From a virus (lineage: Duplodnaviria; Caudoviricetes), in IMG/VR virus record IMGVR_UViG_3300022723_000184, positions 96,001 to 160,000 of that record: a stretch of 64,000 nucleotides of DNA, one strand, 5' to 3'. A model generated the notes under the pieces. It made no database searches. It was not told where the DNA came from and saw only the letters and a program-made list of their open reading frames with translations. Position numbers and translations under genes: made by a program. Positions 2,461 through 56,247 of this stretch are shown here, in pieces (the stretch's first letter is position 1; each line of letters opens with the position of its first letter).

Positions 2461-4156
2461 GGCCAAGAATTACATCTACACCGACCTGTCCGAGGACGAC
2501 GTCCTCGAAGTGGAGATTGACGGCCAGACGTACAAGGCCGTCAATTTCACGATGTCGTTTGCGCTCAACTCGATCCCCCAGGCCGCGGCCACCCTGGCCA
2601 TCGGCCGGGAAGCTCTGTCTGGCGAGCCGGCGAAGATCGCGGAGACGGCGGCCGAACTGACTTCGATGAAGCCAGTGAAGGTCACGTTCAACGCCGGCGG
2701 CGAGTGGGACTCCGAAGGCACCAAGTGGCCCGGCAAGCAAACGATCTTCGAGGGCTACTTCACCGGGTTTTCGTACAAGAAGCTCTATGGCAAGGTCCAG
2801 GTCGTGGCCAACTTCATCCATTGGCTCGTGGACCTGGGCTTCAGCTCCTGCCTCAACTCTCAGATGCACGTGGGCAACCCGGGCGTCATGCTGGGGCCGG
2901 CCGTCATGTCAGTGCAAATTAACTCGGCGGGCGGCGCAGGTGCCAGTGACAAGAACAGCGCCCTGGTCGCCAACCACATCGGTTACGACCTGATCGCCAA
3001 CAACGTCGAGTCCGATTGGTGGAAGACGATCAAAAGCTATCTGTGTGCACTGGCCGGGGTCTCCGGGTTGGCGACCAGCGCCACTGCTACGTGCGAGGGG
3101 ACCGGCGACATCACGGCGAACGACCGGGCGCTCAGAGCCCTGTCCCGGATTGAGGGAGAGGACCTGGCCGGCGAGTGCTCTCGCGACTACGAGTTCGGCA
3201 AGGCCCTGCCCCTCGAAAGCCGAGGCCAGCGGCAGGTGCCCGATGCCGTGGCGAAGTCTGTGGCCAACTCGTACATGCAGTCCTACTTCAACCAGACGTT
3301 CTGGGACCTGCTGGTTAAGGACCTGCTGCCGAGCTTTGGTGCTGCGGTCATGCCCCTGGTCGACCGGGCGGTGGTCATCGCCGACCTCCCGACCTGGCAG
3401 GGCGTCAGCAACCAGCCCTGGAAAGAGATTGGCCCCGACGAATACGTGGCGATGGAGCAGGACTCGAAGATCCCACAGCCGTTGCGGGGAATCGGCATCT
3501 ACGCTCCGGTCGCCGGTGAGACGAACGTCCAGTCAGTGTCCGGCCCTTACAAGCCGCAACTCGGCGGCTGCTACGTGTCGGACGCCGAGGAGGACTCGGA
3601 CGGCACACTCAAGTACGTGACCGCGCCCCGTTGGTTGTTGGGGGTCCCGTCCGAAGGCCTGTACGCCGGCGCCATGACCGGGAACAAAGAAGAGAAGTCG
3701 ATCAAGTCGGCGACCCACGGCCAAGAGGACAAGATCGACACCCCCGAAGACCCTAGCCCGGTGGATACGTTCGAGACGGTCAACGAGCTGATGGTGCGGT
3801 ACGCCCACTGGCTTTTCACGATGGAATCACTTCGTGGCCGGAGCGCCATCTTCTCTGGTAGACTGAGGTTCGACATCGCCCCGGGGTCCCACCTGAAGAT
3901 CGTGGGCTCACCGGAGCAGTTCCTGGAGACCGACGCCCTGGCCTCCGACGTCTACGGCATGGTCCGTGCGGTCACGATCGGGATCGACATCGAGGCGAGG
4001 GCGGCGGTTACCTCATACGTGCTGTCACACAATCGAAACGAGGCAGAGAACGAGGCCGAGCGGACGAGTATCGAGGAACATCCACTGTTCGGGTCAGCGA
4101 TCGTCAACGGGGCGCCGCTGGTCAAGGCCTTGGACCTGGGGAGCGAAGATGCCTGA
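2432..4156 (+). CDS. Baseplate hub protein (late control D/gp27-like); start may be TTG 2453
   Basis: ~575 aa; C-terminal GRLRFDIAPGSHLKI...GMVRAVTIGID pattern typical of hub proteins; context. Confidence 0.5.
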   Translation: MKHGDRWLAKAKNYIYTDLSEDDVLEVEIDGQTYKAVNFTMSFALNSIPQAAATLAIGREALSGEPAKIAETAAELTSMKPVKVTFNAGGEWDSEGTKWPGKQTIFEGYFTGFSYKKLYGKVQVVANFIHWLVDLGFSSCLNSQMHVGNPGVMLGPAVMSVQINSAGGAGASDKNSALVANHIGYDLIANNVESDWWKTIKSYLCALAGVSGLATSATATCEGTGDITANDRALRALSRIEGEDLAGECSRDYEFGKALPLESRGQRQVPDAVAKSVANSYMQSYFNQTFWDLLVKDLLPSFGAAVMPLVDRAVVIADLPTWQGVSNQPWKEIGPDEYVAMEQDSKIPQPLRGIGIYAPVAGETNVQSVSGPYKPQLGGCYVSDAEEDSDGTLKYVTAPRWLLGVPSEGLYAGAMTGNKEEKSIKSATHGQEDKIDTPEDPSPVDTFETVNELMVRYAHWLFTMESLRGRSAIFSGRLRFDIAPGSHLKIVGSPEQFLETDALASDVYGMVRAVTIGIDIEARAAVTSYVLSHNRNEAENEAERTSIEEHPLFGSAIVNGAPLVKALDLGSEDA

Positions 4157-4874
4157 GACACCCGATATCGATTTCGACCAGGCGTATACGTCGTGGGCCT
4201 CGGACAGGTCTCCGCAGGCCAACGCCACGATCCTGAAGGTTCTCGACCCGGTGATCAGCCAGGCGGTGCAGACACACGTCGGTACGAGCAACCCGCTGCT
4301 CAAGGCCCGGGCCCGGAAGATGACGCTCGGCGCCCTGGGCTCGTTTGACCCGAAGCGGGGCCGGCTCAAGAGCCACTTGTATTCGCAGCTCCAAGGCCTC
4401 AAGCGGCAGCATGCCAAGCAGCAGAGCATCTTCCGGGTGCCCGAGCGGCTGATGTTGGACCGCCGAGGTCTGAAGGCGGCGCAGCAGGAACTGGAAGACG
4501 AACTGGGGCGGGAGCCGACGGACCAGGAGCTGGCGACGCGCACCGGGTTCTCGGTCGACCGGATCTCTCGCATCCGGCAGTTCAGCCCCGCGATGAGCGA
4601 GGGCTTCTTCTCGACGGTGGGCGAGGGCGGCATGGTCCCACAGTCCACGAGCCCGATCAGCCAGCAATCGTCGTGGGTCCAGGTGGTGTACGACGACCTG
4701 GGCCCGCTCGACAAGAAGATCATGGAGTGGACGCTGGGCCTCAATGGCCAACCCCGACTCTCGAACCAGGAGATTGCTTTGAGGCTCAAGAGGTCCCCGG
4801 GCGCCATCAGCCAGCGAAAGGCGCTGATCCAGCAGATGCTTGACGAGGAGCAGGACCTTTCCCCTTTTCTATGA
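4149..4874 (+). CDS. RNA polymerase sigma-70 family factor (FliA/SigF-like)
   Basis: Region 3 motif ELGREPTDQELATRTGFSVDRI; region 4 HTH LSNQEIALRLKRSPGAISQRK; region 2-like helix. Confidence 0.85.
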   Translation: MPETPDIDFDQAYTSWASDRSPQANATILKVLDPVISQAVQTHVGTSNPLLKARARKMTLGALGSFDPKRGRLKSHLYSQLQGLKRQHAKQQSIFRVPERLMLDRRGLKAAQQELEDELGREPTDQELATRTGFSVDRISRIRQFSPAMSEGFFSTVGEGGMVPQSTSPISQQSSWVQVVYDDLGPLDKKIMEWTLGLNGQPRLSNQEIALRLKRSPGAISQRKALIQQMLDEEQDLSPFL

Positions 4875-4882
4875 AACTATGC

Positions 4883-4917
4883 CAGCTCGTCGGCTTAAAA
4901 GCGAGACAAGGCGAGAC
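4883..4917 (+). repeat. Degenerate solitary CRISPR repeat A (sense, upstream of RBS)
   Basis: CAGCTCGTCGGCTTAAAAGCGAGACAAGGCGAGAC resembles repeat CTGCTCATCGGTTTAGAAGATGAGAC; stem CTCGTC/GGCGAG + AC; 31/35 identical to the copy at 33550 (-). Confidence 0.75.
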
Positions 4918-4931
4918 CTCTGAGGTAGACC

Positions 4932-5408
4932 ATGGGTACCGAACCGAAACCACAGTCCAAGGCCGAGATCGACTCGAACTTCGAGGGTCAGATCAAGAAG
5001 CTGCGTGAGCGGGCCAAGGACGAGGCCGACGCGAAGCTGGGCGGCGACAACGCCCAGTGGAACATCCCGGAGCTGGGCGATTGGGACGGCGACCTGTTCG
5101 CGGTCGAGGAGATCAGCGACGCGTTCAAGCGGGAAGAGGCCAACGAGAAGTTCGAGGAGGCGACCAAGGACTCCAGCTCGCCGGGTGTCGCCGGCGACCT
5201 CGGCGTTACCACACTGCAGGTTGACTACTTGGCCTGCATGGACCGGGCCTTCCGGGCCAGGCACACGATGCGACGGCCCCGGACCATGGCCCACATGACC
5301 GGCCGCCGCAAAGGCCACGGCAACGAGCGAGGTACGCTGACCCAGACGGCGTTGGAGTTCGCCCGCAACCTGCTTAAACAGGCCCAGGCGTCGGGAGGTG
5401 GTAGCTGA
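4932..5408 (+). CDS. Hypothetical protein in baseplate module
   Basis: RBS GAGG; coding-like composition; overlaps next start. Confidence 0.6.
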   Translation: MGTEPKPQSKAEIDSNFEGQIKKLRERAKDEADAKLGGDNAQWNIPELGDWDGDLFAVEEISDAFKREEANEKFEEATKDSSSPGVAGDLGVTTLQVDYLACMDRAFRARHTMRRPRTMAHMTGRRKGHGNERGTLTQTALEFARNLLKQAQASGGGS

Positions 5409-5893
5409 TGACCGTGACCGGATCCGTTGCTGCCTACGCCGATCGTCAGATCGACATGCTGGCTTTCCAGAACCCAGGTATCGGGAGCCTGGAACTGGTC
5501 GACTTGATCCTCGTCCCCGACGGCGGCAGCGGGTTCAGCATCGCCGGCATCGCCAAGCTCGCCCAGCGGTTCTTGATCGAGCTGCTGACTGAGCAGGGAT
5601 CGATCCCGTACGACACGGTCCGCGGCTCGACGTTCCTCACCGAGCTTCGGCAGGGTAGGGTGCGTACGACGCCGGCCGCCGAGACCGCGTTCTACCTGGC
5701 GCTGGACCAGGTGAAGCTCCAGCTGCAGCTGGAGGAGTCCGACGACATGCCCGACGACGAACGGTACGGGCGAACGACCCTCGACTCGATCGTGCTGTCG
5801 CCGGCCGATACGGTAAAACTACGACTGACGTTGTTCAGCTTGGCGGGGACCGGCGTGACGCTGTTGCTCCCGATTGAGACTACGCTTGGATAG
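5408..5893 (+). CDS. Baseplate wedge subunit, gp25/GPW-like
   Basis: LAQRFLIELLTEQGSIPYDTVRGSTF motif; size; precedes baseplate J. Confidence 0.65.
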   Translation: MTVTGSVAAYADRQIDMLAFQNPGIGSLELVDLILVPDGGSGFSIAGIAKLAQRFLIELLTEQGSIPYDTVRGSTFLTELRQGRVRTTPAAETAFYLALDQVKLQLQLEESDDMPDDERYGRTTLDSIVLSPADTVKLRLTLFSLAGTGVTLLLPIETTLG

Positions 5894-5922
5894 TGCCAGC
5901 TCGCTGGCGAATAGAGCGAGAC
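5887..5922 (+). repeat. Degenerate solitary CRISPR repeat B (sense, upstream of baseplate J RBS)
   Basis: TAGTGCCAG-CTCGCT-GGCGAATAG-AGCGAG-AC: same 6-bp stem, 9-nt loop and AC tail as the repeat; three compensatory pairs. Confidence 0.75.
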
Positions 5923-5939: not shown

Positions 5940-7643
5940 ATGACGATTCAGATCACCAACCTGGACGACGTGAACCAAGAGCTTGTCGCGGACAACCTCG
6001 ACGAGATCATCACGCGCCTGCAAGAAGACAACCCATCACTCGACCTCCGGCGAGGCGTCCTCAAGGACCTGCTTGCCGGCTACCACGCGTCGCTGAGCGC
6101 TGCCGAGCAGCAGACGTTGGCCCGGTACCTCAGCGCCCGGTCGCTGCAGCAGATCGAGGCCGATCCGACGCTGGCCGACGAGGGGGTGACCGACGACGTC
6201 CTCTCCAACTACCGGGTCACCCGGCAGCAGGGGGCTACGGCCCAGGGTGAGATCACGATCGTCGTCAGTCAGAACACCACGGTGGTCATCTCCGAGGGAG
6301 CCATCTTCGAGGCCGACGGGCAGCAGTTCGCTAGCGATTCGGTGTTCACGGCCAAGACCGAGGCCGCCCAGATCAACACGTCGACCGACCGCCTGCTTCA
6401 ACAGCGATCGGACGGCAACTGGTTCTTCACCATCACGGTGACCGCGGCCGAAGTCGGGACCGAGGGGAACATCGCCAAAGACACTTTCATGGTGCCGGCC
6501 GTGCCCCCGCCCAACTACGTCACGTCGTTCGCGACCAACGACTTCGTGAGCGGGACCAACACCGAGACCAACACCCAGCTGCTCCAACGATTGCAGGAGG
6601 GGCTCGCGGCCAGGGCCCCGTCCAACCGCACGAACATGAAGGGGATGCTCCGAGAGATCTCCGACGAGGCGTACGCCGGCAACCTGCATAGCTCGATCGT
6701 CGGGTTCGGCGACGAGGAGATGCTCCGTGACCAGCACACGATCTGGCCCGGCAGCCTGGGCGGGCGCTCCGACTGGTACATTCGCACGGTCGAGCAGCTG
6801 TTCCGGCTGACGCTGCAGCGGGAAGCCACGCTCGTCCAGATCGGGACCCGTGGCGAGCTATCGAATAACTGCTCGCCCGGAGGCCCCAACGCCTCGGACA
6901 TCGTAACGGTCTGGCAGTTCGCCCTGGCCCGCGACGACGCCCCCGGTTTCTACGAGATCCGGACGGTACGCCCCCTGGGATTCGATGAGGCCAGCGGCAG
7001 CTTCGAGATCCTGGCCGACATCCGGGGCCTGGACCTGACGGGCGACGGCTTCGTCCCGGACATCGACACCGTGGAGGAAGGGGCGTACAGCCGCTACCAG
7101 ACCACGGTCATCAAGTTCATTGACGACCAGGTTGACCCGACCACGGTCGCGGTCGGGGACACTAGCGCCTACGACGTGTCAGTGGCCATGATGCCCCAGA
7201 TCGGCGACATCCAGGACGACCTGAACACCCGCGACATCCGCAGCTACGGGTCCGACGTCCTGATCAAGGCCCCGGTACCCTGCTTCGTGTCGCTCTCGTT
7301 CACGATCAACAAACAGAACAACGTGCCGGACCCGGACCTCGATGCGATCAAGACGGCGTTGGCCAAAGAGGTCAACACGATTGCGTTCCTAGGCCGGCTG
7401 TACGCTTCGCAGCTGCACGACGTGATCCAAGGCCTGCTCGGAACCACGACCAGCGCCGGCAAGATCGACATGTTCGGTCGCCTGCGTTACCCGGACGGCA
7501 CGACCAAGTACGTCCGTGACTTTGAGGTGCTGGCGATCGACGGGCCGGCCGGGCAAATGGTCAGCCCGAAGACCGTGCAGTTTTATCTGGACGTCGAGGA
7601 CATCTCGATCTCGATCGCGACCAGCGTCCCCGTGCCCTCTTAA
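5940..7643 (+). CDS. Baseplate J-like protein
   Basis: ATAQGEITIV..VVISEGAIFEADGQQF and ITVTAAEVGTEGNI / GTNTETNTQLLQRL motifs of the baseplate J family. Confidence 0.8.
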   Translation: MTIQITNLDDVNQELVADNLDEIITRLQEDNPSLDLRRGVLKDLLAGYHASLSAAEQQTLARYLSARSLQQIEADPTLADEGVTDDVLSNYRVTRQQGATAQGEITIVVSQNTTVVISEGAIFEADGQQFASDSVFTAKTEAAQINTSTDRLLQQRSDGNWFFTITVTAAEVGTEGNIAKDTFMVPAVPPPNYVTSFATNDFVSGTNTETNTQLLQRLQEGLAARAPSNRTNMKGMLREISDEAYAGNLHSSIVGFGDEEMLRDQHTIWPGSLGGRSDWYIRTVEQLFRLTLQREATLVQIGTRGELSNNCSPGGPNASDIVTVWQFALARDDAPGFYEIRTVRPLGFDEASGSFEILADIRGLDLTGDGFVPDIDTVEEGAYSRYQTTVIKFIDDQVDPTTVAVGDTSAYDVSVAMMPQIGDIQDDLNTRDIRSYGSDVLIKAPVPCFVSLSFTINKQNNVPDPDLDAIKTALAKEVNTIAFLGRLYASQLHDVIQGLLGTTTSAGKIDMFGRLRYPDGTTKYVRDFEVLAIDGPAGQMVSPKTVQFYLDVEDISISIATSVPVPS

Positions 7644-9224: not shown

Positions 9225-9815
9225 ATGCAAGAAATCATCCTCCCAAACAAGAGCGTCTCTGGTCGGGTCCGCGCCCACGAGGTTCGTGGCGACGTCTGGG
9301 ACCTTCTGACCGCGTGGGACCACAACCAGGTCCTCTACGGCTGGGGGACCGTGGTCGGCACGCTGCTGACCAAGGGCCTGTCCAACTACCGCATCGGTGG
9401 GATGTACCTGGAATACGAGAACGTCGCGGACCCCGACGACCCGGTGTCGGCCCCGACCTTCGACCGGAGCGGCGGCAAGAGCTACTACGACGGCCTGGGC
9501 CTCAGCGCGACCCGCGACTACCTCCGCGTCCCGCTGACCGCCTCGCTCTTGAGCAGCAGCGATGAGACGCTGTTCCCGGACGGCAACGTGATGACGTTCT
9601 TCGCCCAGTCCCAGGGCGTGACGGGGGCCAACGGCAAGGCGTTCAGCGACACGGTCAACTCCAAGATCTACGGAGGGGCCCTGGTCGCTTTCCTGGATGA
9701 GGCGGACGCGGATCAGGATATCGTCTTCAGCCGCTTCTACTTCTCGGTGGCGAACCAGCAGGTGAAGTTGCCCACCTCCCAGATCGGGTTGGAGTGGGAG
9801 ATCACGCTGCAGTAG
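9225..9815 (+). CDS. Tail/baseplate-associated protein
   Basis: Context; 17-nt RBS/start region identical to that of baseplate J. Confidence 0.45.
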   Translation: MQEIILPNKSVSGRVRAHEVRGDVWDLLTAWDHNQVLYGWGTVVGTLLTKGLSNYRIGGMYLEYENVADPDDPVSAPTFDRSGGKSYYDGLGLSATRDYLRVPLTASLLSSSDETLFPDGNVMTFFAQSQGVTGANGKAFSDTVNSKIYGGALVAFLDEADADQDIVFSRFYFSVANQQVKLPTSQIGLEWEITLQ

Positions 9816-9888
9816 CGGCTAGAGTCACACCTTGTAAGCCGGTGCGCTGGCATGGTGACGCTAGTATAGCTAGATAAGGGGCTCAAGG

Positions 9889-27722: not shown

Positions 27723-28037
27723 ATGGCCACAGCAGCACACAAGCTGGTCGTGATCCAGGACAACACCCTGAAGAACATGGCCAAGCAAACGCGGTTCACC
27801 AAGGAGTTCCCGTTCCTTCAGTCGCTCAACCGACTGAACCAGGGCGCCCCGAAGCGAGGTTGCGGCGGGTGCCGATCGAGCAACAACCGGGTGTCCGAGG
27901 TATTCGCTGCGGCAAAGCGTGCGCTGGCCTCGCTGCCGGCCTCGAAGAAGCGGGTGCTCAAGGAGCTGCTTGGGGCTAAGAAGGTGCGGGTTACCTACCG
28001 TCAAGCAGGCGGGAAGACGGTCGAACTGACCTTTTAA
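27723..28037 (+). CDS. Hypothetical CxxC protein (paralog of 26229-26588)
   Basis: RBS AGGAG; GCGGC motif. Confidence 0.6.
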   Translation: MATAAHKLVVIQDNTLKNMAKQTRFTKEFPFLQSLNRLNQGAPKRGCGGCRSSNNRVSEVFAAAKRALASLPASKKRVLKELLGAKKVRVTYRQAGGKTVELTF

Positions 28038-28138
28038 AGTCACGCCTTTTGAACCGGTATGCCGGCATGTTGACACCAGTACGGCTACCTAAATAAACGT
28101 GTTTTTTGCGTCAAAATACATGCAGGCAAATTAGCCCG

Positions 28139-28174
28139 GTCTCATCTTCTAAACCGATGAGCAGGTATTAAGAT
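28139..28174 (-). CRISPR. Solitary CRISPR repeat C with leader end and -10 box
   Basis: 35/36 identical to the array repeat; preceded on - strand by TATAAT-ACCGAGG, like the array leader TATAAT-GCCGCGG. Confidence 0.92.
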
Positions 28175-28196
28175 CCTCGGTATTATAGCCGAACCG

Positions 28197-28227
28197 CACC
28201 CGGCACATCGCCGGGTGTTTTTCTTTT
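28197..28227 (+). terminator. Rho-independent terminator ending the structural operon
   Basis: CACCCGGC-ACATC-GCCGGGTG followed by TTTTTCTTTT. Confidence 0.8.
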
Positions 28228-28328
28228 CACCCCACCCCTCGTCCCGGTAGGCGTCCTGCTTGCCGGGGCTTTCGTCGCGGGCCTGTTGTCCGCGACTACT
28301 ACCACCTCCTCCAGAAGGGAAAATTGTC

Positions 28329-29932: not shown

Positions 29933-29946
29933 AAAAAGTACTTTTT
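29933..29946. promoter_or_regulatory. Palindromic motif AAAAAGTACTTTTT
   Basis: Second copy; abuts solitary repeat E. Confidence 0.6.
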
Positions 29947-29979
29947 AAAATACCCGCATATCGGCTTAAAAGATATGAC
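29944..29979 (+). repeat. Degenerate solitary CRISPR repeat E (sense, upstream of RBS)
   Basis: AAATACCCG-CATATC-GGCTTAAAA-GATATG-AC; 25/36 identical; two compensatory pairs. Confidence 0.85.
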
Positions 29980-29995
29980 GAAAGGGAGGCACACG

Positions 29996-30190
29996 ATGCT
30001 GTGCGCTACCGAAGGCAAGGCGTGCGTCCTCGTCGGATTCATCGCCACACTCGCAGGGATCATCGTGGCAGCGTACACCACGCCGCTAACCGGGATCGCC
30101 TGGGGCATGGTTGCTCTGCTGGGCCTGTTGGCCTGGGTGAACACCAAGCTCGAACCCGCGGACCGCGATGGTCCCGGGAAACGAAACTAA
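29996..30190 (+). CDS. Small two-TM membrane protein
   Basis: RBS GGGAGG; two hydrophobic segments; 64 aa. Confidence 0.6.
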   Translation: MLCATEGKACVLVGFIATLAGIIVAAYTTPLTGIAWGMVALLGLLAWVNTKLEPADRDGPGKRN

Positions 30191-33549: not shown

Positions 33550-33588
33550 GTCTCGCCTTGTCTTGCCTTTAAGTCGGCGAGCTGCATT
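33550..33588 (-). repeat. Degenerate solitary repeat F with own -10 box (TAGAAT, 33595-33600)
   Basis: - strand AATGCAG-CTCGCC-GACTTAAAGGCAAGACAA-GGCGAG-AC; 31/35 identical to copy A. Confidence 0.75.
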
Positions 33589-33615
33589 GTCCGTATTCTA
33601 CTCAGGTGAGTCTAG

Positions 33616-39160: not shown

Positions 39161-40048
39161 TTGGCCAAACGCAAGTTCACGATGCACGAGCAGATGATCT
39201 TCGACGTAATCCGCAAACAGGCGGGCACGCTGTCGAAGGCGGCGTTGGAAGGCGTGATGAACGCCGTCGACGCCAACGCCTCCGAGATCAAGATCACGCT
39301 CGACGAGGGCAGGATGACCCTGTCCGACGACGGTAAGGGGTTCCGGTCCAAGAAGGAGATCGAAGACTACTTCGAGACCTTCGGCCGACCTCACACAGAG
39401 CAAGAGCAGAAGGTCTTCGGCAAGTTCCGTATGGGTCGCGGGCAGATGTTCGCGTTCGGCAGGAACCTGTGGGAGACCGGACGATTCCGGATGGACGTCG
39501 ACGTCAAGGACAAGGGCCTGGATTACGACCTGAAGGAGCTGTCCGAGAAGGAGCGGGCGCCCGGTTGCTCGATCACGATCGAGCTGTACGACCAGTTGCT
39601 GCCGAGTGACGTCGACAAGACGGTCAGGGACCTGGAGCTGTGGTGCAAGTGGGCGCCGCTCCGTGTGGTGCTCAATGACCGGGAGATCAGTTCGGATCCC
39701 GCTGCCCAGGAGTGGCAGTACGAGACGGACGAGGCCTACGTCAGTCTGACGGGTGTCGGCGGTCTGACGATCTACAACCAGGGCGTGTTCGTCATGGACA
39801 TTCCGGCCTACCGGTACGGGACGGGCGGCGAGGTCGTGACCAAGATGGGTCAGGATCTTGACGTCAACTTCGCCCGCAACGACATCCTGGCTTCGTGCCC
39901 GATCTGGAAGAAGGTCTCGCCCTTCATCGACCAGCGGGCCACGGAGAAGAACACCAAGAAGCGGGCCCTGGACGACGGCGCCCGCCAGAGGCTGGCCCAC
40001 CAGTTGAAGGCCGGCGAAGAGATCGAGTCTCATCTTCTAAACCGATGA
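39161..40048 (+). pseudogene. GHKL (HSP90/MORC/rIIA-like) ATPase, truncated by a CRISPR repeat
   Basis: EGVMNAVDA, DDGKG, GKFRMGRG motifs; last 7 codons come from the inverted repeat; likely C-terminal remnant at 40077-40130. Confidence 0.7.
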
Positions 40049-40062
40049 GCAGGTATTAAGAT
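40027..40062 (-). CRISPR. Solitary CRISPR repeat G with leader end and -10 box (TACAAT, 40070-40075)
   Basis: 35/36 identical to the array repeat; 46 nt identical to copy C. Confidence 0.92.
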
Positions 40063-40406: not shown

Positions 40407-41074
40407 AAGGGGTCGGATACGCGGCCTAACCAGTTTACCACCGTCGGGCCGAGGTGGTAGGCGGCGGTCTGCTCCATGTAGACCACGCGATCGCGTTCGG
40501 CCCACTGCTTCGCAAATTGGATGTCGCAGGTCTCGGCGGTCTGAAACCGTTCGGGGTACGGCTTCCGTTGCGAGGTGTGGTAGAGCTGGAAGTAGCCTCG
40601 GACCAGGCCGTGCTCGAAGGCGGCTGAGTCCGGGGGGATGTACGCCAGGCGGGTGTGATACGGGATGAACGGGTCGGCCTGCTTGATCGCATAGCGAGAG
40701 GGTACGACGAACCTTGGCGCCCCGTACAGCTTAGTAGGGTCAGGGACGACCCGGTGCAGTTGGTCGATCGTCTTCTCGGGGATCACGATGTCCGCGTCCA
40801 GGTGTAGTATCCAACCAGGGGACGCATCGAAGATGCCAGCGCACCGGCTTAGCAGGTGCGACAGTGCCTTGCCCTTGTTGAACGGTGCACCGCCCTCGTA
40901 GAAGGCGTCGGTGCGGACAAGAGAAAAGCCCAGGTCCTTGCAGACCTGGGCCGTGTGTTCGTCTTGGTTGTCGGTCACGACGACGACCCTGGGGGTCAGC
41001 CGCTTCCAGGACAGGCCGGCGATCTCCAGGGTGTCGGCGTAGTTGACGCTGACACTGACGATCGTCGGCTGCAT
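40403..41074 (-). CDS. Glycosyltransferase, GT-A fold
   Basis: VSVSVNYADTL..VVTDNQD..FNKGKAL..ILHLDADI. Confidence 0.8.
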   Translation of the reverse strand: MQPTIVSVSVNYADTLEIAGLSWKRLTPRVVVVTDNQDEHTAQVCKDLGFSLVRTDAFYEGGAPFNKGKALSHLLSRCAGIFDASPGWILHLDADIVIPEKTIDQLHRVVPDPTKLYGAPRFVVPSRYAIKQADPFIPYHTRLAYIPPDSAAFEHGLVRGYFQLYHTSQRKPYPERFQTAETCDIQFAKQWAERDRVVYMEQTAAYHLGPTVVNWLGRVSDPF

Positions 41075-52475: not shown

Positions 52476-52915
52476 GCGAGGACCACAACTGGAAAGTGTT
52501 GGAAGACGCGATCGACATTGCGGCGACCGGCCACCAGAAACAGATAAGGGCCGACGGTCGACCCTACATCGTCCATCCCGTAAGGATGGCGATGCGCCTG
52601 CTGCAGAAACACGGGCCGCTGCTGGCCGCGGTGGCCATGCTCCACGACGTCGTGGAGGACACCGACTACACGCTCGACGACCTGGCCGGGCTGTTCCCGC
52701 AGCACGTGGTTAAGGCGGTCGACAACCTGACGCGGCGTGACGGCGAGACATACGATGACTTCGTCGAGCGGTGCGGGGCCAACCCCTGGTCCCGCCTAGT
52801 GAAAATGCACGACCTGCGAGACAACATGCGGGACGTGGACGAGTTCAAGCCGTCGCTCCGCAAGCGATACGACAAGGCCCTCGGCCGCCTGGAGGAGATC
52901 GATGCCCAAACATAA
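52472..52915 (+). CDS. HD-domain (p)ppGpp hydrolase-like protein (Mesh1/SpoT HD)
   Basis: AATGHQKQIRADGRPYIVHP; MLHDVVEDT; VKMHDLRDN. Confidence 0.88.
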   Translation: MSEDHNWKVLEDAIDIAATGHQKQIRADGRPYIVHPVRMAMRLLQKHGPLLAAVAMLHDVVEDTDYTLDDLAGLFPQHVVKAVDNLTRRDGETYDDFVERCGANPWSRLVKMHDLRDNMRDVDEFKPSLRKRYDKALGRLEEIDAQT

Positions 52916-53315
52916 GCCCGGGATCAACCCGGCCACCCTGCGGCCCTCCAAGACGGCGGCCGGCAACTTGCTGTGCCTGACGATCTCCAGGATGGTCATC
53001 GGGAACAAGGACCAGTTCGTGCGGCGAGTGCAGTTGTCGCTGTTCGACGAGAAGACCGAGTTGTCCGTAGGCTTCGCCATGTTCCCGGAGGACCAGTTCA
53101 TCGACGCCCTGGGACACCTGTTCCCTCGGGGCGAGTTGGACGGCGCCAACCTGGAAGACGGGCCGGAGGACGTCGAACAGCTCAACAAAGAGCTGGACGG
53201 CCTCAACGACCTGATCGATGGCAACGCCTTCAACAAGGACTCTGAGAGATACCGGGCCATGGCCCGGCAGGCCGAAATCCGCGAGATCCTGGCCGAACTA
53301 AGAGAAAACACATGA
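52902..53315 (+). CDS. Hypothetical protein
   Basis: RBS GGAGG. Confidence 0.6.
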   Translation: MPKHKPGINPATLRPSKTAAGNLLCLTISRMVIGNKDQFVRRVQLSLFDEKTELSVGFAMFPEDQFIDALGHLFPRGELDGANLEDGPEDVEQLNKELDGLNDLIDGNAFNKDSERYRAMARQAEIREILAELRENT

Positions 53316-53339
53316 GCCATTTTGTGGCTTTGGTGTTCA

Positions 53340-53550
53340 CAGACCGTGAGCCCGACCAGCACAGGTTGCAGGAAAGCCGGTCGAGTTGGAGTTCGACGGC
53401 CACGGCGGCCCCGGGTCGGCCCTCGGGGGCTGGCGGATCCTGACCGAGGTCCTCTGATGACCCTGTTCTCGGAGCGGGCCACCCGAAGGGCCTACTGGGC
53501 CCTGGGTGGTCCGGAGAACAACCGCTGCTGGCGGCCGAGTCGCCAACAGG
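53340..53550 (+). ncRNA. Candidate structured leader RNA upstream of cas12m
   Basis: GC-rich non-coding stretch with nested stems TGTTCTC/GAGAACA, GGCCACCC/GGGTGGTC, AGGGCC/GGCCCT. Confidence 0.4.
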
Positions 53551-53575
53551 CTGCTCATCGACAAGAGGATGAGAC
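53551..53575 (+). repeat. Degenerate solitary repeat H in the cas12m 5' UTR
   Basis: CTGCTCATCG-ACAAGAG-GATGAGAC: first 10 and last 8 nt identical to the repeat 3' part; exactly 20 nt before the ATG. Confidence 0.88.
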
Positions 53576-53595
53576 AAAAAAAAAAGGAATAGCGC

Positions 53596-55365
53596 ATGGG
53601 ATTCAATAAGGACCCAGAGGCCCGCTGTGTGGTTTACCAGTACGGCGGCAAACATCCGACGGAAAACGAAGACGAAGCGATCAACCAGCTCGCCAAGGCG
53701 AACCGTTTTCGGAACCGGCTCGTTGAGTTGGAGCTACAACGACGTGAAGAATACCACGCTGCGTTCTCGGGTTACGGAGACCTGGCGGAGCCGTCAAATC
53801 AGCTTGAGACGCTCAACGAGCAGCTGACCGCTGCGGTGGCAGAACTTAAGGCGTGGAGACAATTGAACGGCACTCGAAGTCAACACCCGACGCTAACCCC
53901 GCAGATCGTTTCGCTACGGGCTCAGGCTCGCCAGCTACGGACACAGATCAAGTCGATCAAGGAAGCGGCCAAAGGCGATCCTACGGTGCAGGCGGCAATC
54001 GAAAAAGCAAACCAGCAGCACCGAGATCAGACCAAAGCTGCGTACGGCGCTGTAAGAGAATCGAACCCGGAGGCCGAGGACGCCAGAGACCGGCATGGGT
54101 TGTTCTGGGGAACGGCCCTCCTAGTTCAAAGGGCAGCGACACAGTTCCAGAAGGGCCCTCCCCCGAGGTACAAACGTTTCGACGGGACGGGAACTATCGG
54201 CGTGCAGCTGCAGAACGGGATGTCTGTGGAGGATCTGTTCACTCCGGGCGGCAGCGTCTGGATTGACCCCGTTCCTCCGGAGGCCTGGGACCCGCAGACG
54301 CCGAGAGGTCAAAGGCGAAAACTCGCAAGAACGATGCTACACATGCGGATCGGCGGGAAGCCGCAGGCCTGGGTGATTCTAAAGCTACCTGTCACCGTGC
54401 ACAGACCGCTGCCTGCAGGAAAACTTATCAAGTGGGTCACGGTCACTCGGCGTAAGTACGGTTCACAGGCGCGGTGGTATGTAAACGTCACGACGGATAT
54501 CAGGTCTGGTGGCACGCTTCACGATGATGTTGCGGCTGCCGGATTTGTGGGTGTCGACCTGGGTTTCAGGTTGTTCAAGCCCGCAGAAAGCAGCTCAGGC
54601 AAGCGATCGCTCCGAGTGGCTGTATGGGCCGGAGATGACGGGGAGACAGGCGAACTTCGCCTCGACGCGAGGTTTATGTCCTACATCTCAAAGGCCGACG
54701 GTTTGAGGTCGATCCGGGACAAGCGGCTTGATCAGATCAGAGCGGCGCTGCTTCCGTTGTGTGACGAGGCGGGTACGCCGGAGTGGTGGAAAGACGACAC
54801 TCAACACATGGCCAAATGGAGGTCTCCTCGAAAGCTGTATCACTTGCTCCACAAGTGGAAAGACAACAGGTGGGATGGCGACAAAACGCTGTTCGATCTG
54901 TTGGTTAAGTGGGTAGTTCAGGACCGTCACCTCCACGTGTGGGAAGCCAACAATCGCCGAAAAGTAGCGGCTCGTCGCCTGGACATGTACCGGAACCTGG
55001 CGGCCTCTTTGAGGCGCAAGTACGCGGTTATCGGGATCGAAGACATCGATTGGCGGATCTGGAGCAAGTTGGCCCTGCCCGAAGAAGAGGAGACCAAGTC
55101 AAAGAAGTTCCGTGTTCAAAAGAAACATGCGGCGGTCGGTCTGCTTGCAGAGACGCTGTCGAATTGCGGGGCACAGGTTGTACGTTTGGATCCCGCTTAC
55201 ACGACGAAGCGGTGCAACGCCTGCGGCAAGATCACCGAATTTGACGCTGACCGGCACCTGCGACATACGTGCGAACATTGCCATGCGGAGTGGGACCAAG
55301 ACTACAATGCGGCAAAGAACCTGCAAGACATGGCGAGCGGCAACGCCGTAACGCAAACCGCGTAG
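53596..55365 (+). CDS. cas12m: Type V-M CRISPR effector Cas12m-like (589 aa)
   Basis: LFWGT, RYKRFDGTGTIGVQLQ, VHRPLP, KWRSPRKL, EANNRRK motifs as in Cas12m; RuvC D321/E482/D569; CNAC..CEHC zinc finger; adjacent array. Confidence 0.88.
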   Translation: MGFNKDPEARCVVYQYGGKHPTENEDEAINQLAKANRFRNRLVELELQRREEYHAAFSGYGDLAEPSNQLETLNEQLTAAVAELKAWRQLNGTRSQHPTLTPQIVSLRAQARQLRTQIKSIKEAAKGDPTVQAAIEKANQQHRDQTKAAYGAVRESNPEAEDARDRHGLFWGTALLVQRAATQFQKGPPPRYKRFDGTGTIGVQLQNGMSVEDLFTPGGSVWIDPVPPEAWDPQTPRGQRRKLARTMLHMRIGGKPQAWVILKLPVTVHRPLPAGKLIKWVTVTRRKYGSQARWYVNVTTDIRSGGTLHDDVAAAGFVGVDLGFRLFKPAESSSGKRSLRVAVWAGDDGETGELRLDARFMSYISKADGLRSIRDKRLDQIRAALLPLCDEAGTPEWWKDDTQHMAKWRSPRKLYHLLHKWKDNRWDGDKTLFDLLVKWVVQDRHLHVWEANNRRKVAARRLDMYRNLAASLRRKYAVIGIEDIDWRIWSKLALPEEEETKSKKFRVQKKHAAVGLLAETLSNCGAQVVRLDPAYTTKRCNACGKITEFDADRHLRHTCEHCHAEWDQDYNAAKNLQDMASGNAVTQTA

Positions 55366-55502: not shown

Positions 55503-56247
55503 ATCGTAATACCTGCTCATCGGTTTAGAAGATGAGACGCGGCATTGATTGCCTTCTTGAGTTGCTGCTCCAACATCGTAATACCTGCTCATCGGTTTAG
55601 AAGATGAGACATCGCCGCATCGCTGGAAGCGGGCGTGGCGTCGGCGGATCGTAATACCTGCTCATCGGTTTAGAAGATGAGACCTTTCTCTGTGTCCGAG
55701 ATAACGGGGTCACTAATGTCATCGTAATACCTGCTCATCGGTTTGGAAGATGAGACAAGCATCCGAGCAGCCGCTACAAGGACAAGATCGGCATCGTAAT
55801 ACCTGCTCATCGGTTTAGAAGATGAGACTAGTCGGGCAATTGCTCGAACGGCACAGAGATATCGTCATCGTAATACCTGCTCATCGGTTTAGAAGATGAG
55901 ACGCTTACCGGTGGCCGAGGCCAAGGCGCGATGGAGAACATCGTAATACCTGCTCATCGGTTTAGAAGATGAGACACGGTGGATCCGGTCGAGCGGCTGA
56001 TCCTTCACATCATCGTAATACCTGCTCATCGGTTTAGAAGATGAGACCCGGTGATCGACGCGGTCCTCGAGAACGCCGAGGACATCGTAATACCTGCTCA
56101 TCGGTTTAGAAGATGAGACAAGTGGATCAGGTTCTTCTCATCGTAATACCTGCTCATTGGTTTAGAAGATGAGACGCGGACTGCCCCGAGATGCGGCGCC
56201 GGCTGTGGGTAATCGTAATACCTGCTCATCGGTTTGGAAGATGAGAC
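55503..56247 (+). CRISPR. CRISPR array: 11 x 36-nt repeats ATCGTAATACCTGCTCATCGGTTTAGAAGATGAGAC, 10 spacers
   Basis: Repeats start at 55503, 55575, 55648, 55721, 55793, 55867, 55940, 56012, 56084, 56140, 56212; spacers 36-38 nt except spacer 9 (20 nt); 3' hairpin CTCATC/GATGAG + AC. Confidence 0.99.

Follow-up and report, generated by a model that had tools for sequence, protein, structure and literature searches.

The cas12m gene of a 202-kb phage is preceded by a degenerate solitary CRISPR repeat (53539-53575, plus strand), whose 3' end lies 8 nt before the Shine-Dalgarno (SD) sequence and 20 nt before the AUG. We consider it possible, with a probability of roughly 0.4, that this unit is a mimic of the crRNA scaffold which is bound by Cas12m on its own mRNA and thereby gives translational feedback. 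All coordinates refer to the window, the whole stretch of 64,000 nt of this phage that was analysed, unless the genome is named.

The phage encodes a single Cas12m with one array

The open reading frame 53596-55365 (plus strand, 589 aa) encodes Cas12m. Its product matches PDB 23vw_A (Cas12m) in phmmer with an E-value of 5.9e-67, and more weakly Cas12m2 (1.5e-26) and 8pm4_A (2.5e-19), while Pfam finds the TNB domain (PF07282). In the alignment of the protein family (A1) the scaffold-contact residues H269/R270 are invariant. The RuvC residues D321-E482-D569 form the canonical triad, which is also present in the closest solved relative, called DNA-binding by its depositors. In the studied clades of Cas12m, DNA binding without cleavage goes with a non-canonical RuvC. 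The genome has one cas12m, no cas1 and a single array (55503-56247, plus strand) with 11 repeats of 36 nt and spacers of 36-37 nt plus one of 20 nt; a TATAAT box precedes the first repeat, 5 nt away. As cas12m is the only PF07282 gene in the genome (n = 1), a second effector for the variant repeat classes described below was rejected.

The array repeat is of the Cas12m type, i.e., about 36 nt long with a stem plus a pseudoknot, ending in GAC and adjacent to the effector. Both helices covary over 29 phage repeats (91% of cells paired; 0/500 shuffles as good). The array spacers gave no protospacer match when compared with the phage collection by blastn.

A degenerate repeat in the cas12m leader

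The stretch 53551-53598 reads CTGCTCATCG-ACAAGAG-GATGAGAC, followed by A10-GGAATAGCGC and then by the ATG at 53596. The blocks CTGCTCATCG and GATGAGAC are identical to the array repeat, and the stem arms are located at 53554-53559 and 53568-53573. A first, sequence-only reading of this DNA had noted that the stem, the 5' CTG and the AC tail are the same as in the array repeat, which is confirmed by 18/18 identical stem and flank bases, the stem-versus-rest position classes having been picked after the data were seen. It had also stated that only the loop differs. The loop is indeed different in sequence and in length (1-nt deletion), but the 5' third has diverged as well, a 2-nt insertion is present, and the pseudoknot helix keeps 2/3 pairs, the middle one being changed (GGC vs GAC).

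The covariance model R1, built from the 29 phage Cas12m repeats, matches 53539-53575 over its full length with 17.9 bits (E 0.057 window-wide, 4e-4 in a local search). The hairpin pointed out in the sequence-only reading is thus real, but the element is longer, namely a whole degenerate repeat. The window contains 13 matches to the pattern CTCATC-N4-12-GATGAGAC, compared with 0 in 100 shuffles, and among these 13 only the copy in the leader has a different loop. In a filter-free covariance search of 53200-53650 the leader unit stands alone, the next best match reaching 8.2 bits. No other full or partial repeat lies within about 100 bp and the array begins 1.9 kb downstream, so that the unit, resembling a CRISPR repeat in both sequence and secondary structure, is classed as a solitary repeat unit. 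A decayed array upstream of cas12m was rejected, as no further remnants are present in 53200-53650.

The repeat abuts the ribosome-binding region

The 20 nt behind the repeat (53576-53595, plus strand), which we call the pseudo-guide, are the ribosome-binding region of cas12m. They consist of A10 (53576-53585) and GGAATAGCGC, with the SD AAGGA at 53584-53588, 7 nt before the ATG. This segment had been described as exactly guide length and ending at the ATG. The 20 nt up to the ATG hold, and laboratory guides for Cas12m also have 20 nt, with a heteroduplex of 17-18 bp (PMC10442227, PMC11013384). However, the native spacers are 36-37 nt long and the sibling units of this phage end 11-24 nt from an ATG, so that the agreement in length is nominal and a spacing of 20 nt nothing particular. 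With a ligand-like copy abutting the RBS of the protein's own gene, the leader has the layout of an RNA-mimic translational operator.

The leader hairpin is present in the minimum-energy (MFE) and centroid folds, and the segment from A10 to the SD is unpaired in both. Since the hairpin is stable and the RBS unpaired, masking of the RBS would need a trans factor. The hairpin is too close to the ATG for a promoter to fit in between, therefore any cas12m transcript that uses this SD contains the hairpin.

Upstream of cas12m no sigma-70-like promoter was recognised in 52800-53700. The leader unit also has no -10 box of the kind seen 5-9 nt before the minus-strand units, and so it is not positioned directly downstream of a recognisable promoter, a frequent trait of solitary repeat units. 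In the 280 nt before cas12m (53316-53595) no frame shows coding-like GC3 (0.58-0.66 vs 0.86 in the preceding gene), and a small ORF at 53322-53609 was rejected as coding because of its GC3 of 0.58. An N-terminal extension of cas12m is ruled out by the in-frame TAG at 53590. An intrinsic terminator was rejected too, as on the plus strand the hairpin is followed by an A run and no T run, and on the minus strand the T run precedes the hairpin.

Solitary repeats in front of other phage genes

At least 16 dispersed solitary repeats are present in the 202-kb genome. Six of the seven on the plus strand end 11-24 nt before a start codon, and all six have an SD within the first 18 nt after the repeat, i.e., in the guide slot. 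The genes headed in this way include a baseplate J-like gene, a UvsX-like gene and cas12m, with at least five besides cas12m. The leader unit is therefore one member of a genome-wide family of solitary repeats, and the view of it as a dedicated autoregulator had to be given up.

Within the window, a unit of a variant stem class (4873-4907, plus strand; 24.7 bits in the covariance model) ends 24 nt before the ATG at 4932 of a 158-aa ORF, and another (5887-5922, plus strand; 21.5 bits) ends 17 nt before the ATG at 5940 of the baseplate J-like gene. A third repeat-like hairpin (29944-29979, plus strand) with the stem CATATC/GATATG and an AC tail is located 16 nt before the ATG at 29997; it was missed by the covariance model and read directly from the sequence. 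The sole plus-strand unit without a start codon after it (40826-40862; 27.0 bits) has the variant stem CGCACC/GGTGCG and a TAGTAT box.

On the minus strand the units come with boxes of their own. The one at 28139-28174 (33.4 bits) has a TATAAT box 7 nt upstream, and the unit at 40027-40062 has a TACAAT box and extends into the plus-strand GHKL-ATPase gene 39161-40048, of which it covers the stop and the final 7 codons. A further unit (9824-9859; 27.6 bits) carries the variant stem CGCACC/GGTGTG and a TATACT box, and its guide side starts 9 nt past the stop of the plus-strand gene 9225-9815. A weak repeat-like unit with an internal insertion is found at 33550-33594 (minus strand; 14.4 bits, E 0.37). 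Genome position 189136 was considered as a self-target of the unit at 28139 (minus strand), but the 2-mismatch match is unconvincing; this site is a paralogous intergenic region without the repeat core, its PAM slot reads GAG and guide position 2 is mismatched.

Cas12m leaders in other phages

Looking upstream of other cas12m genes, as the sequence-only reading had proposed, was productive: a same-strand repeat-like unit occurs 28-114 nt upstream of cas12m in at least seven other divergent phage lineages, about one in five. The distances are 28 nt in L075, 33 nt in L051/52, 35 nt in L010, 50 nt in L087, 82 nt in L065/66, 86 nt in L085 and 114 nt in L054. In L091 it is the last repeat of an upstream array that ends about 31 nt before the cas12m ATG, and in L065 cas12m is preceded by a repeat, a 24-nt spacer and a partial repeat. 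In L075 and L054, compensatory changes with respect to the array repeat of the respective phage preserve the fold of the unit.

With the window left out, 7 of about 20 distinct non-array covariance matches fall in the 130-nt same-strand stretch before cas12m, and these stretches make up about 1% of the sequence searched in the other loci. A strict scan of the upstream regions for the hairpin plus pseudoknot gave 5 matches vs 0.74 expected; the relaxed scan, with 12 matches vs 7.3 expected, is uninformative, and the covariance matches were relied on in its place.

About 80% of the Cas12m loci are without an upstream unit, among them L009 (46% identity), the closest relative among the loci compared. 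Rctr197k, the one distant relative in the INPHARED collection, likewise lacks an upstream unit, and a single-protein scan of viral contigs for closer relatives found none. Scanning with the repeat pattern gave isolated single matches in 31 unrelated contigs, none of them multi-copy, and no related element.

Most of the other lineages have 33-114 nt between the unit and the start, and covering of the RBS is thus not a conserved property. The SD-covering layout claimed earlier applies to the phage studied here, with SD and AUG in the guide position, but judged by these distances RBS occlusion cannot be the conserved function across lineages.

A possible translational feedback by Cas12m

Taken together, the earlier reading of the leader as an autoregulatory element is partly supported, and from layout, fold and recurrence we infer the following sequence of events. 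Free Cas12m would recognise the leader hairpin like a crRNA handle, and the next 17-20 nt or so, A10 plus the SD up to the AUG, would be threaded into its guide channel. The protein may also cut the transcript immediately 5' of the scaffold. Once bound, it would keep the 30S subunit off the ribosome-binding site. Synthesis of Cas12m would then drop as soon as there is more protein than crRNAs and solitary-repeat RNAs to bind it, and would climb again when these RNAs soak up the protein. Autoregulatory RNA mimics usually have a lower affinity than the regulator's true ligand, and the weakened pseudoknot and altered loop could likewise make the leader a lower-affinity site than true crRNAs. The A10 "seed" would leave the bound leader without a DNA target in the phage. 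The same logic could extend to the at least five other phage genes with a repeat unit 11-24 nt before the start codon.

The loss of the central pseudoknot pair and the loop changed in sequence and length run counter to the proposed binding; as the pseudoknot helix covaries in the family, Cas12m may not bind the leader element at all. The sign of the effect may differ as well, since a protein-bound 5' hairpin could instead stabilise the mRNA.

A broader proposal, which we rate as rather doubtful, is that Cas12m of giant phages acts as a sequence- and shape-specific RNA-binding regulator. Solitary repeats would turn selected phage mRNAs (its own, those for the baseplate and the UvsX-like recombinase, and others) into pseudo-crRNAs with the RBS in the guide slot. 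Such mRNAs would form a post-transcriptional regulon run by the effector and kept in balance by the crRNA pool, in which the cas12m leader would serve as the feedback node.

Alternative explanations

The unit might instead be a processing or insulation site, where Cas12m cuts a polycistronic transcript and creates a defined, protein-capped 5' end, so that the mRNA is stabilised or uncoupled from the upstream genes and not repressed. Such a role would fit the lack of a recognised promoter in 52800-53700, the plus-strand units, which are without the -10 boxes of the minus-strand units and occupy stop-to-RBS gaps inside plus-strand gene runs, and the L091 locus, where cas12m directly follows an array. 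Cas12m is also known to auto-process upstream of the scaffold (PMC10442227, PMC11013384). However, the 5' part is the most diverged portion of the leader unit, and the 280-nt non-coding gap before it is unlike the tight junctions of the sibling units. We therefore regard this explanation as unlikely; it is compatible with a mimic bound by Cas12m rather than exclusive of it.

According to a second alternative the unit is a decoy or null guide, which makes a short repeat RNA that occupies Cas12m, be it the phage's own, a rival's or the host's (Racr-like), and its place before cas12m would come from co-transcription or descent from an upstream array. Solitary repeats of phages are known as RNA anti-CRISPRs (PMC10651486), those upstream of cas12a have been proposed as effector-binding inhibitors (bioRxiv 10.1101/2023.03.03.530964), and L065 and L091 carry a repeat-spacer-partial repeat and a whole array, respectively, upstream of cas12m. 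We think this improbable for the leader unit, because the gene of the cognate Cas12m is the phage's own and lies right beside it, and the unit has neither a promoter nor a downstream end except the cas12m ORF. Besides, a decoy role does not predict the SD in the guide slot, which is found at 6/6 of the plus-strand units preceding a start codon.

Equally improbable is a non-functional relic, i.e., what is left of a lost upstream array, with its last repeat in decay, or a product of recombination between dispersed repeats, with the RBS nearby by chance. Terminal repeats are commonly degenerate, Francisella solitary repeats were interpreted as remnants, and the leader unit, with its 2-nt insertion and lost pseudoknot pair, has the lowest score of the units in the genome (17.9 bits vs 21-40). 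But the decay is uneven: stem and flanks are intact at 18/18 positions, whereas the other positions are heavily substituted and hold the 2-nt insertion and the 1-nt loop deletion. Moreover, the 280-nt gap contains no other repeat remnants, and the same arrangement is seen again in independent lineages and in front of five sibling genes.

Autorepression at the DNA level as in CreR, by which the unit and the following 20 nt would guide Cas12m, a natural DNA-binding silencer, to a PAM-flanked site at the cas12m promoter, has been validated in type I-B, I-E and V-A systems (bioRxiv 10.1101/2023.03.10.532045) but is hardly conceivable here, as the pseudo-guide, searched with up to 4 mismatches across the 202-kb genome, has no match besides its own locus, and there, as in the array, GAC from the repeat end occupies the PAM slot. 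Furthermore, the leader A10 is the only A or T run of at least 8 in the genome. Both results together exclude a CreR-type DNA target inside the phage; in its genome no PAM-flanked cas promoter site is complementary to the spacer-like segment.

Comparison with known systems

Demonstrated autoregulation of Cas proteins, by Cas9 tracr-L and CreR, in all cases works through an effector guided to promoter DNA. Like the leader unit, these are degenerate repeat-derived elements near the effector gene, and they sense the crRNA load via competition for Cas. They direct the effector to PAM-flanked promoter DNA by partial complementarity (for CreR, bioRxiv 10.1101/2023.03.10.532045). In contrast, the phage is without such a DNA target, and any effect of the leader unit would be exerted on the mRNA in cis. 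If the feedback reading is true, it would add a circuit at the RNA level, in which the effector is bound to its own mRNA at the RBS, and a CRISPR effector would have been repurposed as a translational regulator of phage genes.

The earlier claim of novelty over autoregulation at promoter DNA needs to be narrowed. An effector-binding role has already been proposed for solitary repeats upstream of cas12a in type V-A loci (Shmakov et al. 2023, bioRxiv 10.1101/2023.03.03.530964). What stands of the claim is the RNA level, as that study has 0 mentions of mRNA, translation or 5' UTR and draws no link to an mRNA leader or RBS. Its V-A units, like ours, are single degenerate repeats upstream of and adjacent to a type V effector gene, show little identity with the array repeat and have no DNA target that could be recognised. 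They are, however, of type V-A and from bacterial chromosomes, with V-M treated only in passing, whereas the leader unit is phage-borne, abuts an SD and has siblings that head other genes. The proposed feedback, if true, would offer a function for target-less solitary repeats such as those upstream of cas12a.

Racr and other viral solitary repeats are single phage repeats that imitate the CRISPR repeat and are thus bound to Cas proteins, and they often follow a promoter directly (PMC10651486; Faure et al. 2019 as cited there). The minus-strand units of our phage have this promoter-plus-repeat form. Racrs are aimed at the host CRISPR-Cas and are not associated with cas genes, whereas the leader unit, which has no promoter of its own, shares its phage with the cognate effector and array.

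Translational operators that mimic the RNA ligand of the regulator are found in ribosomal-protein operons, in the hairpin of the MS2 coat protein/replicase and with T4 RegA. At the RBS of the regulator's own gene they imitate its natural RNA target in a weaker form, and surplus protein thereby stops its own translation. None of them involves a CRISPR effector and the likeness to the leader unit is functional only. If confirmed, the cas12m leader would be of use in Cas12m-based genetic circuits, as a compact 5' leader part that senses protein.

The characterised type V-M effectors use a single crRNA and process their own pre-crRNA (PMC10442227, PMC11013384), and a mimic in the leader has not been reported for any of those studied. 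The phage system differs from them in that the effector is phage-encoded, without cas1, and its Cas12m is distant (E 1.5e-26 to Cas12m2), with a DED RuvC triad vs HDD. Nevertheless, it belongs to the same protein family as MmCas12m2 and GoCas12m (PMC10442227, PMC11013384) and shares with them a 36-nt repeat with the same pseudoknot plus stem.

A phage-encoded Cas12m and its array

The IMG/VR virus record from which the window is taken (record positions 96001-160000) is 201,946 bp long (62.5% GC, about 90% complete), with most genes on the plus strand. By phmmer and Pfam (PF07282) the plus-strand ORF at 53596-55365 (589 aa) encodes Cas12m, with phmmer values of 5.9e-67 to PDB 23vw_A, the closest solved relative, and 1.5e-26 to Cas12m2. 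The RuvC residues (D321, E482, D569) form the same triad as in 23vw_A, whereas Cas12m2 has HDD, and the scaffold-contacting H269/R270 are invariant in 14 homologues. GC3 (0.67) and GC (57.9%) of cas12m are clearly below those of neighbouring phage genes (GC3 about 0.85), which suggests a more recent acquisition. The CRISPR array, 11 repeats of 36 nt each, lies 3' of cas12m at 55503-56247. One spacer (56120-56139) has just 20 nt, the remaining ones 36-37 nt, and the repeat following it carries a stem mismatch (CTCATT). Neither a second PF07282 gene nor cas1 was found in a search of the whole phage.

The cas12m leader contains a degenerate repeat

A covariance model was based on an alignment of 29 repeats from phage Cas12m arrays. 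In this alignment both the 6-bp stem and a 3-bp pseudoknot helix covary; in the latter the three bases ahead of the 'TG-stem' pair with the first three of the loop. The paired fraction of cells is 91%, a level reached in 0 of 500 shuffles. The fold agrees with the structure of the Cas12m2 crRNA, in which pseudoknot and stem are present, the helix is closed by a G·A pair and the 5' end is disordered (PMC10442227). The model matches 53539-53575 (+) at full length (17.9 bits; E 0.057 window-wide, 4e-4 locally) and the element, termed leader unit, is therefore a whole degenerate repeat. Positions 53551-53575 read CTGCTCATCG-ACAAGAG-GATGAGAC, followed by A10-GGAATAGCGC and the cas12m ATG. The 18 bases of the two outer blocks, CTGCTCATCG and GATGAGAC, are identical to the array repeat, confirming the stem and flank identity claimed in the sequence-only reading. 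That only the loop differs proved incomplete: the loop is altered and 1 base shorter, but there is also a 2-nt insertion and only two of the three pseudoknot pairs are left. The GTCGC-AA start is kept. Both the MFE and the centroid fold contain the hairpin and leave the A10-SD tract unpaired. The 280 nt 5' of the unit are non-coding by GC3, and neither further repeat remnants nor a sigma-70-like promoter were found there.

Related units precede other genes of this phage and other cas12m genes

Genome-wide searches by pattern and by model revealed at least 16 solitary units outside the array, which fall into several stem classes, all keeping the fold. Six of the seven plus-strand units end 11-24 nt 5' of a start codon, with an SD within the first 18 nt: those at genome positions 72751 (12 nt, 119-aa ORF), 100873 (24 nt, 158-aa ORF), 101887 (17 nt, baseplate J-like gene), 125944 (16 nt), 149539 (the leader unit; 20 nt, cas12m) and 174582 (11 nt, UvsX-like recombinase). 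The cas12m spacing had been read as exactly guide length, but 20 nt is one value within the sibling range and therefore no signature of guide length. Except for the unit at genome 136826, plus-strand units are without adjacent -10 boxes.

An alignment-based scan gave 53 viral Cas12m loci (24-38% identity), to which further searches added L009 (46% identity), L010, L011 and Rctr197k; upstream units were sought by arm-matching and covariance-model searches. The repeat-like hairpins that the sequence-only reading proposed to look for were found on the same strand shortly upstream of cas12m in about 8 of about 42 distinct loci. With the window excluded, 7 of about 20 distinct non-array model matches sit in the stretch before cas12m, which accounts for about 1% of the searched sequence. 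The units lie 28 nt ahead of the ATG in L075 (preceded by TATGAT), 33 nt ahead of the start in L051/52 (full fold, locus without array), 35 nt in L010 (weak match; a second unit lies 43 nt ahead of another gene), 50 nt in L087, 82 nt in L065/66 (repeat, 24-nt spacer, partial repeat), 86 nt in L085 and 114 nt in L054 (compensatory stem changes). In L091 the entire array is upstream, its final repeat ending about 31 nt before the ATG. No unit was found upstream of cas12m in the closest relative, L009, or in Rctr197k. The L075 solitary stem class (CTCAAT/ATTGAG) differs from that of its own array (CTCAGA/TCTGAG) by compensatory changes.

L075, an unrelated AT-rich phage, has three near-identical solitary repeats (65-100, 496-531, 2931-2966), each with a -10-like box just ahead, the third heading cas12m. 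In L010 both units (2239-2274, 3932-3965) are followed by a similar CCAACC-rich leader, SD and start codon; cas12m is one of the two genes headed this way, and repeat and leader may travel as one module. Divergently oriented solitary repeats or mini-arrays occur immediately upstream of cas12m in L053/L083 (2962-2997, 1247-1282 and 1385-1417, all minus) and L062 (1354-1461, minus).

Possible role of the leader unit

The best-supported reading, to which we give a probability of roughly 0.4, is feedback repression: Cas12m would bind the scaffold mimic on its own mRNA and occlude SD and AUG, with a strength tuned by crRNAs and solitary-repeat RNAs competing for the protein. This reading fits the uneven decay, which has left the stem intact and worn the remainder of the unit; it also fits that the RBS is unpaired, that further genes of the phage carry sibling units and that such units recur in other lineages. 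Against it count the weakened pseudoknot and the distance in most other lineages, too large to cover the RBS. The effect could also be positive, via processing and 5'-end protection, and a processing or stabilisation element is an unlikely, though the next most probable, explanation. Somewhat less probable still are a decoy or ordinary solitary-repeat RNA and, on a par with it, a relic. A CreR-like guide is very improbable: such a circuit requires that the promoter offer a partially matching site flanked by a PAM (bioRxiv 10.1101/2023.03.10.532045), but the pseudo-guide, the 20 nt between unit and ATG (53576-53595, including the SD AAGGA), has no other match anywhere in the 202-kb phage genome, its A10 (53576-53585) is the sole A or T run of at least 8 in this 62.5% GC sequence, and where it matches itself the repeat end GAC occupies the PAM position, as it does in the array. 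These points exclude a DNA-level mechanism inside the phage, which leaves a role at the RNA level.

Solitary repeats are found upstream of cas12a in about one third of V-A loci and were suggested to bind the effector, with no link to mRNA or translation made (bioRxiv 10.1101/2023.03.03.530964). CreR and tracr-L, known Cas-autoregulatory RNAs, act on DNA (bioRxiv 10.1101/2023.03.10.532045), and phage solitary repeats can serve as RNA anti-CRISPRs against host systems (PMC10651486). In literature using the term Cas12m no leader mimic was found described. The leader mimic is therefore a variation on a known theme: solitary repeats by effector genes are already known, and the mechanism is possibly new.

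Minus-strand solitary repeats

Minus-strand units lie at genome 163592 and, aimed antisense into plus-strand gene 3' ends, at genome 5222 and 7620 (L097:5222-5257, L097:7620-7655), 46773 and 53583 (L099:6973-7008, L099:13783-13818), and 105824, 124139 and 136027 (window 9824-9859, 28139-28174, 40027-40062). Most, among them the seven aimed at gene ends, have their own -10 box (TATACT, TACACT, TATAAT or TACAAT) a few nt ahead of the repeat, and six are located at a plus-strand gene's stop codon or overlap it. Three genes (ends at genome 46794, 53604 and 136048) take their final 7 codons and stop codon from the repeat itself. One stop codon overlapped in this way belongs to a 2248-aa helicase/primase-like ORF (L099:7058-13804, genome 46858-53604) interrupted by several Hint/LAGLIDADG intein domains. 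In our analysis the repeats over gene ends look like insertion scars or flank-derived guides as in TnpB omega-RNAs. The intergenic window region 28000-28260, site of the 28139(-) unit, has a paralogue outside the window (G000:C1:189020-189280), in which the -10 box and repeat core are missing and both flanks are kept, including 18 of 20 'guide' bases; it may illustrate a repeat-less allele.
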